Below, in pieces: positions 1 to 5,192 of a stretch of DNA of 5,192 nucleotides (position 1 is its first letter; each line of letters opens with the position of its first letter). A program made the translations under genes and the position numbers. The stretch covers positions 1-5,192 of the forward strand of contig NZ_JAEDAM010000065.1 of NCBI RefSeq assembly GCF_018420025.1, in the 5' to 3' direction. The DNA comes from Candidatus Vampirococcus lugosii. Its GTDB lineage: Bacteria; Patescibacteriota; Gracilibacteria; Absconditabacterales; Absconditicoccaceae. The notes beneath the pieces were generated by a model that did not search any database, was not told the origin of the DNA, and saw nothing but the letters and a program-made list of their open reading frames with translations.

Positions 1-1
1 C

Positions 2-646
2 TTTATATTATGAAATATTAGATATGATTTGGTATGAGAAATTATGAAAAATACTTTACTTACTAGGAAAACGATAGTAAAAATTTTATCAAAAATTCAT
101 ACTATTAAATTTGAGCAATTCAAAATCAATCCAGAAGATTTTATCAAAAAAGTATCTAATTTTATAAATGAACAAAAAGCTTCAACATTGATAAACAATA
201 TTGTTTATAATGCAATAGATCAAAAATATGATAGTGATATATTTACTATAAATAATTTCAAATGATCATTGAAAGACAATATTTTACAAGTGCAAAAACA
301 TATTTATGATTATGTCAAAACGGATTCACAAGTAGAAAGAAATTTAGCTTGAGAACTTGAAACTTGAGAAATTTTAGTATATGCAAAGTTGCCTTCTTCA
401 TTCAAAATACCAACTCCGATATGAAACTACAATCCAGATTGGGCAATTGTAATTGATAAAAAAGATGTTAAATATGTTTATTTCATTGCTGAAACAAAAT
501 GAAGTTTGGAAACTTTACAATTAAAATGAGCAGAAGATTTAAAAATACAATATGCAAAAAAACATTTTGAAGCTCTTTGAAATAATGATATTAAATATGA
601 AGTTATTGCCTGATATTCTGATTTGATGCAGGAAGTTTTTAGGTAG
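2..646 (+). CDS. res: Type III restriction endonuclease Res subunit, C-terminal 214 codons (5' end lies off-window), including the PD-(D/E)xK nuclease domain; requires TGA=Gly
   Basis: The frame of position 2 is open from the window edge to TAG 644-646 if the 10 in-frame TGAs (11, 35, 263, 350, 365, 422, 500, 527, 578, 611) are sense. The track ORF 44-265 is an internal fragment. The translation reads ...LTRKTIVKILSKI...HIYDYVKTDSQVERNLAGELETGEILVYAKLPSSFKIPTPIGNYNPDWAIVIDKKDVKYVYFIAETKGSLETLQLKGAEDLKIQYAKKHFEAL... It has the nuclease core P-D (434-439) and E-x-K (491-499). It also matches the KLPxxFxIxTPxGxYxPDWA / ETKG / KHF pattern I remember from COG3587-type Type III Res C-termini. There are no GGN codons in the fragment, so all Gly would come from TGA. 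Family call from memory, not searched. Confidence 0.8.
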
Positions 647-711
647 TTTGATTTTGGAAAATATAAGTTTATTAAAATATAAATAAAGTAAAATAAATAA
701 ATGAGCTTCAA

Positions 712-749
712 AAAAAATATTTAAATTTTATATTTAAAAAATATTTAAA
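712..749. repeat. 14-bp perfect direct repeat AAAAAATATTTAAA (712-725 and 736-749) in the res-helicase intergenic spacer
   Basis: Read directly from the sequence: two identical copies 24 bp apart, separated by TTTTATATTT, and each contains the self-complementary core AAATATTT. The sequence is low-complexity A/T, so chance occurrence is not negligible. Confidence 0.4.
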
Positions 750-754
750 AAGAA

Positions 755-782
755 TTGATTAAATTATAATAATATATATAAT
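755..782 (+). promoter_or_regulatory. Putative sigma70-type promoter for the helicase operon: -35 TTGATT (755-760), 16-nt spacer, -10 TATAAT (777-782)
   Basis: The -10 hexamer is a perfect consensus match and the -35 is 4/6, with 16-nt spacing, about 40 nt upstream of ATG 822 in the only sizeable intergenic gap (647-821). TATAAT-like strings are common by chance in DNA this AT-rich, and promoter rules in this lineage are not established. Confidence 0.35.
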
Positions 783-802
783 GAATTTTAATTATATATA
801 TT
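771..802. repeat. Perfect 12-bp inverted repeat AATATATATAAT (771-782) / ATTATATATATT (791-802) with an 8-nt spacer, followed by TTTT (803-806)
   Basis: The arms are exact reverse complements as read from the sequence. The left arm contains the putative -10 box, and the element ends 20 nt before the helicase ATG. It could be an operator, a weak all-A/T hairpin, or low-complexity coincidence. Confidence 0.4.
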
Positions 803-821
803 TTTTGAAATTTAAAATAAA

Positions 822-3800
822 ATGCAATTATTTGATAATAAAACTCAAAAAGTTTGATATGACCTTAAAAATACTATTTGAAAAAATACTAAATTAAGTG
901 TAGCAGCTGCAATATTTTCTATTTATTGATTTGATAGTTTAAAAAAAGAATTATCAAATATTGATGAATTAAATTTTATATTTACAGATTGAGCATTTAT
1001 TGAAAAATCTAATAATAAAAAAGAAAAAAAATTATTTGAAATTAAATCAGATAATATAAAAAAAGCAATATCATGAACTGATTTTGAAATAAATCTAAAA
1101 AATAAAATGAAAGGTAGAAAAATTGCAAAAGAATGTAAAAAATGGATAGATTGAAAAGTAAAATTTAAATCTAATATTTCTTGAGATTATATACAAGAGC
1201 AATTTATTGTAGATAATAATGATCAAAAAATTATTTATCAATGAATAGAACAATTTAGTAGTTCATGATTTGGTTTTGAAAATGATAATTCTATTATAAG
1301 AAATATTATTAAAATTAATGATTATCAAATGAGTAAATCTTTTTTGGATTCTTTTAATCAAGTTTGGAATGATAATGAATCATTAAAAGATATAACTGAA
1401 GAAGTAGTTGATTATATTTCAAATTTATATAAAGAAAATTCTCCAGAATTTGTATATTATTTTACTTTATATAATATATTTGATGAATTTTTGGAAGATA
1501 TATCAGAAGATGAATTAGCAAATGAAAAAACAGGTTTCAAAGAATCTGTAATATGGAATCAAATGTTTGATTTTCAAAAAGATGCAGTTTTATGAATAAT
1601 AAATAAACTTGAAAGATATAATGGTTGTATACTTGCTGATAGTGTATGACTTGGTAAAACATTTTCAGCATTAGGAGTTATTAAATATTATCAAGAAAGA
1701 AATAAAAGTATTTTAGTTTTATCTCCCAAAAAATTATGAGATAACTGGCTTACTTTCTTAAATAATTATGAAGATAATTTACTTGTCAAAGATAGATTAA
1801 ATTATGATGTTTTATATCATACAGATTTATCAAGAAATAAATGAGATTCAAATTGAATTGATTTATCTCGTATAAATTGGTGAAATTATGATTTAATAGT
1901 AATTGATGAATCACATAATTTTAGAAATAATGTATCTAGAAAAGATAAAACTACTCGTTATCAAAAATTATTGAATAATATAATAAAAAAATGAGTAAAA
2001 ACTAAAGTTTTGATGCTTTCAGCAACTCCTGTAAATAATAAATTTACTGATTTAAAAAATCAAATATCACTTGCTTATGAATGAAATACAAACATAATTG
2101 ATGAAAAAATGGAAGTTTCAAAATCTATAGATACTATTTTATCAAATGCACAAAGAACATTTAATGAATGGTCAAAACTTGATTTAGAAAAAAGAACTTC
2201 TACCGAATTACTTAAAAGATTAAATATTAATTTTGATTTTTTTAAATTACTTGATTGAATAACTATTGCTAGAAGTAGAAAACATATAGAAAAATATTAT
2301 GATATATCCAAAATATGAAATTTTCCAAATAGACTTAAACCAAAAACTATAAGATCTAATATAACAAACTTGGAATCATTTATAAGTATAAAAGAATTAT
2401 ATGAATCTTTGTCAAAACTTAATATGTCAGTTTATAACCCATTTAATTATATACTTCCAAGTAAAATAAATTTTTATGATGATATTTATGATACAAATAT
2501 AGATACTTTTAGAAGTTTGAAACAAAATACAAGAGAACAGAGTTTGCAAAAACTTATGAAAGTAAATTTTTTAAAAAGATTAGAAAGTTCTATTGATTCT
2601 TTTAGAATTACTTTATGAAAATATATTTTAAAAATTGAAGATATTATTGCTAATATTGAAAAATTTGAAAAATATTGAACCAAAACAAATACAGATTTAA
2701 TTCAATACAATGAAGATGATATTGATGAAGATAATGATGATTGGATAGATGATGAATTTAGTGTATGAAATAAAGTAAAAATTAATCTTGAAGATATGGA
2801 TACATTATCTTGGAAGCAAGATTTACAAAAAGATTTATATATTGCTAGTGAAATATTAGAAGAAATGAATTTTGTTGAACCACAAAATGATAGTAAATTA
2901 AATGATTTGAAAGAAATTATTAAAAATAAAATTGAAAATCCTATAAATGAATGAAATAAAAAAATTATTATTTTTACAGCTTTTACTGATACAGCAAATT
3001 ATTTATACCAAAATTTAATTGATTATAATAAAAATTTTTGATTACAAACAGCAAAAATAAGTTGAGATTGAGTAAATGAATGTAGTTTTAAAACAGATAA
3101 ACAATTTAATAATTTACTTATAAATTTTTCTCCTATATCAAAATCAAGATCTAAATCAAAAGAAAATAATACTCAAATTGATATATTGATAGCAACAGAT
3201 TGTATAAGTGAATGACAAAATTTACAAGATTGCGATTATCTTATAAATTATGATATACATTGGAATCCTGTGAGAATTATTCAAAGATTTTGAAGAATTG
3301 ATAGAATATGATCTCAAAATAAAGATATACAACTTGTAAATTTCCGACCTCAATTATCTCTTGATGATTATATTGATTTGAAAAATAGAGTAGAAAATAA
3401 AATGAATATTGTATGAACTACAGCAACATGAGAAAATATTTTGACCAATAAATCAAGTGATCTTGAGTTTAGAAAAAAACAATTAGAGAAATTACAAAAT
3501 GAAGTTGTAGATATAGAAGATATGGATACAGGAATTTCTATTATGGATTTATGATTAAATGATTTTAGAATGGATCTCATAAATTATATAAATCAAAATT
3601 GAAAATTTAAATGAATACCTTATTGAATGCATACAGTTTGTAAAAAAAATTTATCTAAATGAATTGATGAATGAGTAATATTTATATTAAAAAATATTAA
3701 TAATGAAATTAATATTGAAAATACAAATCAATTACACCCGTTTTATGTAGTTTATATAAATAAATATTGAAAAATTTTATCTAATCATATCAATGTAAAA

Positions 3801-4067
3801 CATACTCTTGATGTTTTAAAATCTATATCTAAATGATATAATGAAGCTATAAAAGAAGTTTATGAATTATTTAATGAAGAAACTCAAGATTGAAAATATA
3901 TGGACAAATATTCTGAATTATTAAATCAATCTATACAATCAATTATAAGTATAAAAAATGAAACAGATATAGATAGTTTATTTAATGATTGATGAACATC
4001 TGATATAATGAATAATATTAAATGATTAAAAGATTTTGAACTCATTACTTTTATTGTTATCAAATAA
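822..4067 (+). CDS. SNF2-family (superfamily 2) DNA helicase/translocase, 1081 aa, with an N-terminal His-free domain (possibly a degenerate PLD-like fold) and an uncharacterised C-terminal domain of about 240 aa; requires TGA=Gly
   Basis: I translated codon by codon. There is no TAA/TAG in frame from ATG 822 (preceded by in-frame TAA 813-815) to TAA 4065-4067, with about 43 in-frame TGAs by hand count. Track ORFs 1329-1595 and 2370-2618 are fragments of this frame. Helicase motifs: FDFQKDAV (1566-1589); I ILADSVGLGKT (1629-1661, Gly=TGA 1647-1649); II VIDESH (1899-1916); III LSATP (2016-2030); V ATDCISEGQNLQ (3192-3227, Gly=TGA 3213-3215); VI HWNPVRIIQRFGRIDRIGS (3258-3314, Gly=TGA 3291-3293 and 3309-3311). 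The N-terminus MQLFDNKTQKVGYDLKNTIGKNTKLSVAAAIFSIYGFDSLKKEL resembles the N-termini of PLD-fused SNF2-like helicases as I remember them. Confidence 0.93.
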
Positions 4068-4069
4068 TT

Positions 4070-4690
4070 ATGATTTTAGAACTACCAAAAAATTGTTTAG
4101 TAGATAAATTTGTATCAAAGACTAAGTTTACATCTCAGGTACTTGTTAATACTAAACTCAAAGATGAGTTTACTCGTGAGATAAAAAGAATAACTTGGAA
4201 ATATAAACTTGCAGAAACTACTCTGATGATACAAGCAACTCAAAAAGTAAAAGAAATACAAATATTTGAGATAGAACTAAAGAATAAAGAGATACCAAAA
4301 AATGTACTCAAACTTATAGATAAACTTATTCCTTACTATATACTTTATTATTTCAAATATGAAAATAATTTTGCTTTTTGAATAACTCTCAAAGATAATG
4401 TAAGTAAAGATTATTATTTTTCAGACTGGAACGAAGAGTTAAAATTTAACTTTCATGCTATAAATCTAAAAATAGTACTAGAAAATATTATAAAGCAATT
4501 TATAAAAAGAGTAGATACAGATAATAATAACTTCCAAGATATAATTGAAAAAGACAAACAAATAACTATACTAACCAAAGAAATACAAGCATTAAAAAAT
4601 AAGATAAAACAAGAAAAGCAATTTAATAAAAAAGTAGAACTCAATAAAACTTTGCAAGAGAAACAAAAGCTTTTGTGAAAACTTAAATAA
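4070..4690 (+). CDS. DUF4391-like protein of unknown function, 206 aa, with a charged coiled-coil-like C-terminal tail; probably translationally coupled to the helicase
   Basis: ATG 4070 lies 2 nt after the helicase stop. The frame is open to TAA 4688-4690 with two sense TGAs (4379-4381, 4676-4678). Track ORF 4070-4381 is the N-terminal half. The sequence is MILELPKNCLVDKFVSKTKF...EIKRITWKYKLAETTLMIQATQKVKEIQIFEIELKNKEIPKNVLKLIDKLIPYYILYYF...YYFSDWNEE...KQEKQFNKKVELNKTLQEKQKLLGKLK. The LPK start, the ITWxYKL segment, EIQIFEIxL, LIDKxIPYxIL and the KQFNKKVELN tail match my recollection of Pfam DUF4391, a family usually encoded next to SNF2-type helicases. Confidence in the CDS itself is high. 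Confidence in the family call is about 0.65. Confidence 0.85.
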
Positions 4691-4711
4691 TTTATATACT
4701 AATATAGTAAT

Positions 4712-5101
4712 ATGGAAATTATATGATTAATAGTTATAACATATTTAATTATTATATTTGTAAATAGTTTTAGATCTCCATATAAAAAAAGATCAAAAGG
4801 AAGTTCTTACAATAATAATTACTATAAAAACAATACAAATGATGAAGATAATCTTCGAACTAATACTTATGATCAGCTCTGGGATAAGTACAAAGCAGAA
4901 ACAAAAACTCCACCACTTAATGCATTGGTTTCACGGGCATATGAAAACGGAGAAATATTCTCTGGAAGAAACAATTTTGATGATTTGAACCAAGAAGATA
5001 AAAAAACCATCTTAAGAATAGCTATATGTATATCTAAAAAAAAAGCTGCAGAAAAAGCTTTAGAAAAAATGATGGATATGAATCAATCAGGTGGATATTA
5101 A
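4712..5101 (+). CDS. Hypothetical small protein, 129 aa, with an N-terminal transmembrane anchor; absent from the standard-code ORF track
   Basis: ATG 4712 lies 21 nt after the DUF4391-like stop. TGA at codon 5 (4724-4726) hides the ORF under the standard code. 129 codons run to TAA 5099-5101 without TAA/TAG, which is improbable by chance in DNA this AT-rich. The sequence is MEIIGLIVITYLIIIFVNSF (hydrophobic helix), then RSPYKKRSK (basic), an N/Y-rich linker, and ...TNTYDQLWDKYKAETKTPPLNALVS.AYENGEIFSGRNNFDDLNQEDKKTILRIAICISKKKAAEKALEKMMDMNQSGGY. I recognise no family. Codon usage differs from the neighbouring genes (see findings). Confidence 0.6.
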
Positions 5102-5140
5102 TTAAAAACTTAACTAATTTATTTTATAAAACAACTACTT

Positions 5141-5192
5141 ATGCAAAAACTAGACCTACAAACTTTTGATAGTTTATCAAAAAATATAGAAG
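5141..5192 (+). CDS. Possible 5' end of a further plus-strand gene (MQKLDLQTFDSLSKNIE...), product unknown
   Basis: This is the first ATG after in-frame TAA 5111-5113, and the frame is open for 17 codons to the window edge on the same strand as the cluster. It is too short to evaluate. Confidence 0.25.
   Translation, partial: MQKLDLQTFDSLSKNIE

Follow-up and report, generated by a model that had tools for sequence, protein, structure and literature searches.

A probable four-gene Type III restriction-modification operon variant with an SNF2-DUF4391 pair, represented by an incomplete copy in Candidatus Vampirococcus lugosii

The complete 5192-bp contig of Candidatus Vampirococcus lugosii described here (the window; coordinates 1-5192) carries parts of a Type III restriction-modification (RM) system together with genes for an SNF2-family ATPase and a DUF4391 protein, and our explanation of the whole, which we consider fairly likely to be right, is that it is part of a conserved four-gene Type III RM operon variant with an SNF2-DUF4391 motor-adaptor add-on. 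The window has a GC content of 20%, and the standard bacterial code splits its + strand into short open reading frames (ORFs); when TGA is read as a sense codon, four long co-oriented ORFs are found on that strand (ORF1 to ORF4; Table 1). The coordinates, gene content, and shared orientation of these genes, and the distances of 175, 2, and 21 nt between them, are the same as in a preliminary description of this DNA, and its attribution of the sequence to a genome using genetic code 25 also stands. Under table 11 all four genes come out fragmented, 33 of the 42 aligned TGA codons in the helicase gene fall at glycine columns of eight standard-code orthologues and none (0/42) at tryptophan, and TGA codons occupy invariant glycines in SNF2 motifs I, V, and VI. 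TGA is the main glycine codon of the window (56 TGA vs 12 GGN), and the Vampirococcus genome paper confirms code 25 (PMC8080830).

A fifth ORF, overlooked in the preliminary description, starts at 5141 and reads MQKLDLQTFDSLSKNIE, which matches the N-terminus of a 627- to 629-aa N6_N4_Mtase protein encoded at the related loci L001 and L002; window positions 5106-5191 have 88% nucleotide identity to L001. Because this ORF is the start of the methyltransferase gene mod, Mod lies downstream of DUF4391, and not upstream of the window where the preliminary description proposed to look for it. ORF1 matches PF19778 RE_endonuc (E value, 1.6e-34) and PADLOC REase_III (5e-54; model positions 772-986 of 989), and is the end of a restriction subunit (Res) of ∼1010 aa; at the nucleotide level it is 87% identical to the 3'-terminal part of the L001 Res gene (1010 aa). 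Both nuclease motifs, PD (434-439) and ETK (491-499), are intact, and the gene ends with a stop codon at 644-646. The superfamily 2 (SF2) ATPase domain, which L001 Res has (GTGKT, DEPQ), is absent from the window, where the sequence upstream of the Res remnant is replaced by a junction to Mod codon 17.

Table 1. Features of the 5192-bp window
Feature	Coordinates	Strand	Basis
Res, C-terminal 214 residues with PD-(D/E)xK endonuclease domain (ORF1)	2..646	+	PF19778, PADLOC REase_III, identity to L001 Res
AT-rich spacer of 175 nt, from Res stop to SNF2 start	647..821		Without counterpart in relatives
SNF2-family ATPase/translocase, 1081 aa (ORF2)	822..4067	+	Pfam SNF2-rel_dom and Helicase_C, motifs I-VI
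DUF4391 protein, 206 aa, 2 nt past the SNF2 stop (ORF3)	4070..4690	+	PF14335
ORF4, 129 aa, with N-terminal transmembrane helix	4712..5101	+	No Pfam or PADLOC family
Mod (Type III N6-adenine methyltransferase) start, 17 codons plus 1 nt, ended by the contig end	5141..5192	+	N-terminus of L001/L002 Mod
Sequence found directly after 5192 in the independent assembly L005, giving the junction 5192|1	1..30	+	L005 alignment

The complete Mod proteins of relatives have PF01555 and a DPPY motif, L001 Mod matches the Mod subunit of EcoP15I (4.5e-70), and L001 Res matches EcoP15I Res (4zcf_C; 1.6e-78). By these comparisons the Mod and Res of the cassette are true EcoP15I-type Type III proteins, and the DPPY motif of Mod, together with the Walker A and DEPQ motifs and C-terminal PD..ExK of Res, indicates that the two would supply site recognition, self-methylation, and cleavage. 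There was no Vampirococcus protein among the top Mod matches in a search of Mod homologues; exact look-ups of the table-11 DUF4391 fragment and of ORF4 gave no match, and a cluster look-up returned the known contig alone. The genome paper counts one Type III restriction enzyme and reports nothing further on the system (PMC8080830).

In relatives, the native order of the genes is SNF2, DUF4391, Mod, Res. This arrangement is present in all of the closest recoded relatives (L001, L002, L006, and L007), and the annotations of plasmids from E. coli (IncFIB), Acinetobacter, and Leuconostoc show it as well; for a Lactococcus plasmid (L088), a fragment labeled "SNF2-related" is the only annotation upstream of DUF4391, methyltransferase, and Res, and there the SNF2 gene (2102-5167) is interrupted by an insertion sequence of the IS21 family. 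A scan of species-level genomes with the DUF4391 profile, in a collection that does not include the Vampirococcus genome, gave 255 loci, 80 of which (L008-L087) were kept for neighborhood counts, with each count using the loci that have enough flanking sequence. The kept loci are from Candidate Phyla Radiation (CPR) lineages, DPANN archaea, Omnitrophota, Desulfobacterota, Bacteroidota, Planctomycetota, Fibrobacterota, Firmicutes, and Gammaproteobacteria. SNF2 is immediately upstream of DUF4391 in 58/61 loci, Mod is downstream of it in 58/58, and Res is downstream in 39/39; the cassette genes are co-oriented in all, with median gaps of 11 nt (SNF2-DUF4391), 37 nt (DUF4391-Mod), and 19 nt (Mod-Res).

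These counts bear out the recurrence of SNF2 and DUF4391 beside Type III Mod and Res genes, which the preliminary description had mentioned. Its arrangement of Res followed by SNF2, however, is found at none of the 80 related loci, and, contrary to what it supposed, the presence of such genes in a CPR genome is not unusual: genomes of CPR and DPANN lineages feature prominently among the nearest carriers, and a Type III enzyme had already been counted in this genome (PMC8080830). Natural E. coli plasmid cassettes, one of which is at 3234-12562 of CP057716.1, were found in 10 of 5426 complete genomes. The PGAP name for the E. coli version is "type III restriction-modification system endonuclease," and the databases annotate the four genes piecemeal.

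Reciprocal sampling from the Mod side, blind to DUF4391 and using metagenome loci with at least 5 kb of upstream sequence (n=33), gave a similar picture. SNF2 is present in 30/33 of these loci, DUF4391 is in all 30 of those (three of the DUF4391 proteins are divergent and were detected by Pfam alone), and Res is next in 24/24. Mod-Res of the same clade is found without the pair in two or three of the Mod-centered loci, and in Pelotomaculum and Desulfonema (61-62% identity), with no pair remnants; in the sampled loci there is no SNF2-DUF4391 pair without Mod-Res. Because Mod-Res can stand alone and the pair never does, we view SNF2 and DUF4391 as a dependent accessory module and not as a neighboring system, and from this pattern of gene linkage the two are very probably an integral accessory module of the Type III RM system.

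The cassettes vary in several further respects. Scalindua (L020, 7783-9049) and Methyloprofundus (L081, 9152-9469) have an SNF2 gene that is truncated or no more than a remnant, and at one locus (L069) DUF4391 is without detectable partners. DPANN archaea with the cassette include Woesearchaeota and Nanoarchaeia (L017, L018, and L070), and it is also present in many CPR lineages; comparison of the DPANN and CPR proteins with those of free-living bacteria gives identities of 45-54% for DUF4391 and 66-70% for the helicase, which implies that a 9-kb operon has repeatedly crossed between domains by horizontal transfer and entered very small genomes. At three loci the tblastn span of Mod is ∼3.7-3.9 kb vs the usual ∼1.9 kb (L058, 4190-8041; L074, 5843-9587; L044, 11553-15193), which suggests that Res is preceded there by two Mod genes in tandem or by a Mod that is duplicated or fused; the summed Mod score is approximately double in L058 (2113) and L074 (1973), but not in L044 (1354). 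The L001 and L002 cassettes are on apparently mobile DNA, with serine recombinases on the flanks (L001, 7352-9025 and 13441-15423; L002, 1-1662 and 8616-9248) and a DUF5906 protein nearby.

The departure of the window from the native order is tied to the topology of the contig. An independent Logan assembly (L005; 99.98% identical) consists of window positions 682-5192 followed directly by window positions 1-30, and the end of the contig thus joins its own start (junction 5192|1; L005, 4483-4542). This junction links Mod codon 17 to approximately Res codon 796, out of frame, and past it the Mod frame continues for 24 codons before a stop; the window has no terminal overlap. L005 begins inside the spacer and ends 30 nt (k-1) past the junction, and the contig ends coincide exactly with gene-order breakpoints, from which we infer that the assembly graphs branch at the junction, and that reads for fuller Mod and Res paths may therefore exist. 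The blastn matches to L001, L002, and L006 end at 647 and restart at 822-835, and the spacer between these points matches nothing in the relatives. The Res-then-SNF2 order thus reflects a self-closing topology (a circle, a tandem copy, a deletion derivative, or an amplification or assembly chimera) and is not the native layout, and the contig is an incomplete copy of the operon, probably rearranged or misassembled.

We put at about even the chances that the Res-spacer-SNF2 order and the join of Mod to Res are both artefacts of multiple displacement amplification (MDA) and assembly, with the chromosome carrying a complete SNF2-DUF4391-ORF4-Mod-Res operon. The genome is a SPAdes assembly of DNA amplified by MDA and by MALBAC from ∼10 cells, with only contigs of >2.5 kb binned (PMC8080830). 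The coincidence of the contig ends with the gene-order breakpoints, as at branch points of an assembly graph, the start of L005 at 682 and its end k-1 nt past the junction, the out-of-frame join, and the lack of any relative (0/80) with Res upstream of SNF2 all fit with such artefacts. Nonetheless, the junction is found in two assemblies, the search of Mod homologues gave no Vampirococcus Mod, and a closed path of 5192 nt requires two chimeric joins unless the circle or tandem copy is real. In any event, the Vampirococcus contig should not be taken as an intact or natively ordered locus.

The spacer is also where the preliminary description placed a candidate promoter for the SNF2 gene. A promoter-like site at 755-782 scores 10/12, but the scan gave 65 promoter-like sites vs 55 ± 7 in shuffled sequences, and sites of this kind are not enriched over the shuffles; a dedicated promoter within the spacer was therefore rejected as indistinguishable from background in DNA with 20% GC. 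The promoter and terminator scan found no terminator-like site, and Rfam and repeat searches of the window found no RNA element and no repeat.

ORF2 matches the Pfam families SNF2-rel_dom (2.3e-11) and Helicase_C (1.7e-15), with PF00176 and PF00271 both scoring above their cut-offs. The SNF2 motifs are intact (GLGKT at aa 276, DESH at 362, SATP at 400, SEGQNLQ at 796, and QRFGRIDRIG at 821), and the codon for the Walker lysine is at 1656-1658, as given in the preliminary description. The protein comprises a conserved N-terminal domain (aa 1-231; nt 822-1514), RecA lobes 1 (nt 1557-2057) and 2 (nt 2898-3311), and a C-terminal region that is likewise conserved, and the features that define the SNF2 family are all present, namely two RecA lobes, motifs I, II, III, V, and VI, and an insertion of the SNF2 type. 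Its matches in the PDB are SNF2h, ISWI, and RapA. Helicase orthologues across phyla are 66-76% identical over their full lengths, and the E. coli plasmid helicase is 51% identical to that of Vampirococcus. Median identities among 42 complete cassettes are 66% for SNF2, 60% for Res, 53% for Mod, and 50% for DUF4391, so that the SNF2 motor is the most constrained component of the cassette.

The preliminary description saw no recognizable nuclease motif in the SNF2 protein, and we likewise found no demonstrable nuclease domain. This needed closer inspection, as the full length of the helicase is matched by the PADLOC model C3a139, which bears the name "HKD+Snf2" (5e-128); the name C3a139 denotes a cluster found near type III CRISPR loci and never characterized (PMC6546367). 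An HKD-type phospholipase D (PLD) nuclease in the helicase N-terminus, as that model name suggests, was rejected by motif, family, and profile tests. Neither aa 1-240 of the Vampirococcus helicase nor the clade consensus has a histidine, none of nine diverse members has a PLDc match in Pfam, and the N-terminal domain scanned alone does not match PDLC01075, other PLD-helicase models, or NCBIfam; alignment of this domain with a genuine PLD nuclease by hhalign gives a probability of 0.6%. As the HKD label fails and the helicase termini are without a family, the only demonstrable nuclease in the cassette is Res. A degenerate PLD fold could nonetheless be present in the helicase N-terminus, because the structure model is poor: the full-length model has a mean predicted local distance difference test score (pLDDT) of 56.9, which we attribute to an alignment short of diversity, and Foldseek returns generic SF2 motors alone. 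The N-terminal domain has no family match in Pfam, NCBIfam, PADLOC, or PDB. Within aa 1-231, 53 columns are invariant out to the E. coli plasmid version, including Q125 and FEINLKN..G..IAKEC..WI, and disorder is predicted for a segment of ∼30 residues (aa 57-87).

ORF3 is a full-length DUF4391 protein, in which residues 3-200 align with positions 1-230 of the 232-position PF14335 model (7.7e-38; 131.1 bits vs a cut-off of 29.9). An AlphaFold2 model (pLDDT, 88.7; predicted template modeling score, 0.79) shows an alpha/beta domain at aa 1-145 and, after it, a basic helical hairpin at the C-terminus (aa 155-205) that includes the motif EKQFNKKVELN. Fold searches with this model against PDB and BFVD gave no significant match, and a sequence search found no PDB relative. 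In the most diverse DUF4391 alignment, K17 and T51 alone are invariant and the other conservation is hydrophobic; the alignment has no conserved acidic or histidine residues and no conserved catalytic residues. We read DUF4391 as a non-enzymatic adaptor, because K17 and T51 are the sole invariant residues and neither acidic residues nor histidines are conserved. PADLOC has no model for DUF4391. Phage carriage of the cassette was also considered and was rejected on the rarity of DUF4391 in viral sets, with two phage records and 6 of 2.9 million viral contigs.

The preliminary description included ORF4 with the other genes, but none of the relatives has ORF4 in the corresponding slot, and 1.84 billion representatives yielded just five distant relatives of it, all of them apparently from recoded (TGA=Gly) genomes of low GC content; as a system component it was therefore rejected. 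A single hydrophobic helix (Kyte-Doolittle 19-residue mean, 2.26) lies at the N-terminus of ORF4 and is joined by an N/Y-rich linker to a small, conserved domain at the C-terminus; no ORF in the slots of the 80 related loci is related to it. The slot between DUF4391 and Mod is empty in L001 and in L002 holds a 212-aa membrane protein, the first 60 residues of which gave no match. We conclude that ORF4 is a lineage-specific passenger in a variable slot and is not a core gene. Members of its family are membrane-anchored and share the C-terminal motif VPPLDSLV.RAYE..I.S..DKKTILRIAI. Two relatives with readable context are encoded just after a TaqI_C-domain enzyme and a GmrSD enzyme (L090, 689-1096; L091, 1260-1637), and all three readable contexts of the family are directly behind a restriction-related gene (DUF4391/Mod, TaqI_C, and GmrSD).

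Each of the cassette's three junctions takes insertions, which are present at 10/76 loci in the SNF2-DUF4391 slot, at 27/74 in the DUF4391-Mod slot, and at 21/59 in the Mod-Res slot. The inserted genes are passengers of the kind usual in restriction operons (RhuM, PDDEXK_3, Bro-N/DinD-like, KilA-N, 23S_rRNA_IVP four-helix-bundle, and ORF6N proteins; for example L014, 12475-13491; L030, 9550-10000; and L052, 4023-4932), and ORF4 resembles none of those that recur. RhuM is inserted at 16 loci, mainly in the Mod-Res slot. Extra cargo is also seen in the closest relatives: in L001 an SLFN/AlbA_2 protein separates Mod from Res, and in L002 Mod is followed by a Fic-like protein (HPFxxGNGR).

Comparison with known systems places the cassette among Type III RM systems and sets it apart from them. 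It shares with the canonical enzymes EcoP15I and EcoP1I (Mod2Res) an N6_N4 Mod with DPPY and a Res with an SF2 ATPase and a C-terminal PD-(D/E)xK domain (E values of 1e-70 to 1e-78), but differs in that SNF2 (1081 aa) and DUF4391 precede Mod-Res in ∼90% of this clade; canonical Type III systems are not known to have SNF2 or DUF4391 genes. CglI- and NgoAVII-type restriction enzymes have separate subunits for the nuclease (R) and a helicase-like ATPase (N), and are thus alike in that a separately encoded SF2 ATPase must cooperate with a nuclease subunit. They are unlike the cassette in having a PLD/B3 nuclease and a DEAD-type N protein, and in lacking Type III Mod and Res.

The nearest published architecture is that of the Type-2 BREX-related (BR)/Hma systems, in which an HKD-SNF2 helicase is encoded with DUF3780, an N6-methyltransferase, and a DUF499 ATPase (PMC12839542); HmaA has been tested experimentally (PMC11232893). 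In common with these, the cassette has a big SNF2 protein with an extra N-terminal domain, a small standalone alpha+beta protein without known homologue, an N6-methyltransferase, and a second large NTPase. It differs in having Res in place of DUF499, DUF4391 instead of DUF3780, and no PLD/HKD signal. DUF499 is not found among the cassette genes of L001, L002, L006, L007, and L093, whose Pfam content is SNF2, DUF4391, N6_N4_Mtase, and ResIII plus RE_endonuc, and the HmaA model matches the helicase at aa 605-833 alone (1.8e-27). Class 1 DISARM similarly couples an SNF2 helicase (DrmD) to an N6-adenine methyltransferase (DrmMI) in a modification-based defense operon, and among the named families of NCBIfam and PADLOC the helicase core is closest to DrmD. 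However, the NF038317 DrmD model scores 151 bits vs a cut-off of 610 and matches aa 567-845 alone, and DrmA, DrmB, and DrmC are absent from the genes of the cassettes examined. Membership in DISARM, BREX, Zorya, Dpd, or Hma was rejected, as the similarity is partial, is to the helicase core, and is far under the cut-offs. We found no published study of the four-gene unit and no functional study of DUF4391, PF14335, or C3a139 in literature searched without most subscription journals. The cassette is thus a widespread and apparently unstudied unit, Type III by its Mod and Res and set apart by two added genes.

How might the pair act? In canonical Type III enzymes ATP is a switch for one-dimensional diffusion, and two head-to-head unmethylated sites are needed. 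A plausible scenario is that SNF2 and DUF4391 form a motor-plus-adaptor subcomplex, in which the alpha/beta domain and basic coiled-coil hairpin of DUF4391 would be the bridge that docks the motor onto Mod2Res, and that this subcomplex would add ATP-driven translocation on double-stranded DNA to restriction. Translocation could provide active long-range communication between sites, or could remove bound proteins, in either case widening the range of DNA that can be cut. We propose this specific role as a motor in restriction tentatively. Its fullest form, in which the pair converts a diffusion-based Type III enzyme into a four-component translocating machine of a new mechanistic class, with DUF4391 as an adaptor of new fold, is speculative, and we think it somewhat unlikely. 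Several considerations weigh against the reading of the pair as a motor-adaptor add-on. The putative contact of SNF2 or DUF4391 with Mod or Res is conjectural, and the poorly modeled N- and C-terminal domains of the helicase could hide an activity. The system may be non-functional in Vampirococcus, given the lack of a Mod orthologue among the top Mod matches. Lastly, ∼10% of the Mod-Res clade is without the pair, which is therefore dispensable for basic RM, and the role of the pair could equally be regulatory.

A regulatory role is the substance of one rival, in which SNF2 and DUF4391 are a control or safety module that strips stalled Type III complexes or nucleoid proteins from host DNA, keeping methylation complete, or that delays restriction after horizontal transfer and would thereby limit self-killing. 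The SNF2 relative RapA removes stalled complexes from DNA, and a safety role would suit a cassette that is highly mobile (on plasmids, beside serine recombinases in L001 and L002, and distributed from E. coli to DPANN archaea), in which the pair stands first in the operon and Mod-Res is present without it in some genomes. A 1081-aa protein with 66% median identity does seem costly for a pure safety device, which is an argument from plausibility only, and the sequences do not separate this role from that of a motor for restriction; we nonetheless think that a safety module is an unlikely explanation. Another idea is that the pair is an anti-anti-restriction layer that would detect or clear away phage inhibitors of Type III enzymes (DNA mimics or DNA-coating proteins, for example) and thereby restore restriction. 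It is found only with RM, which can itself exist without the pair, and backup layers added to modification-based systems are a recurrent theme (PMC12839542). Yet a sensor of fast-evolving phage proteins should itself evolve fast, and SNF2 is the slowest component of the cassette, with DUF4391 evolving faster than it; we judge such a layer quite improbable.

The preliminary description had left open whether the pair is a second ATP-dependent layer working with the Type III enzyme or an independent defense system sharing an island with it. The first of these is favored by the fixed gene order, the short gaps, and the constant company of Mod-Res, and the second did not hold up well. It is true that SNF2 helicases act as effectors in several defense systems, that the helicase gives weak partial matches to DrmD, BrxH, HmaA, ZorD, and DpdE, and that defense genes cluster, with L093 also having DpnII, extra methyltransferases, and HicAB. 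But Mod-Res accompanied the pair throughout (58/58 and 39/39), the genes keep a single order and strand with gaps that are often a few nucleotides, no nuclease or effector domain is demonstrable in SNF2 or DUF4391, and PADLOC is without a DUF4391 model, such that an independent system is, in our view, scarcely credible.

Type III restriction enzymes are a textbook two-subunit system whose long-range communication on DNA has been debated for decades. The findings here indicate that a large Type III clade nearly always comes with a dedicated SNF2 motor, better conserved than the restriction enzyme itself, and with a partner without known fold, and genes annotated as "helicase-related protein" and "DUF4391" beside Mod and Res should be annotated with them as one system. 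The natural E. coli plasmid cassettes make the function directly testable in a standard host. Should the proposed translocating machine prove correct, it would represent a class that has spread horizontally across bacteria and DPANN archaea, and that would cut DNA with a single site or with sites in the same orientation, which is refractory to canonical Type III enzymes.

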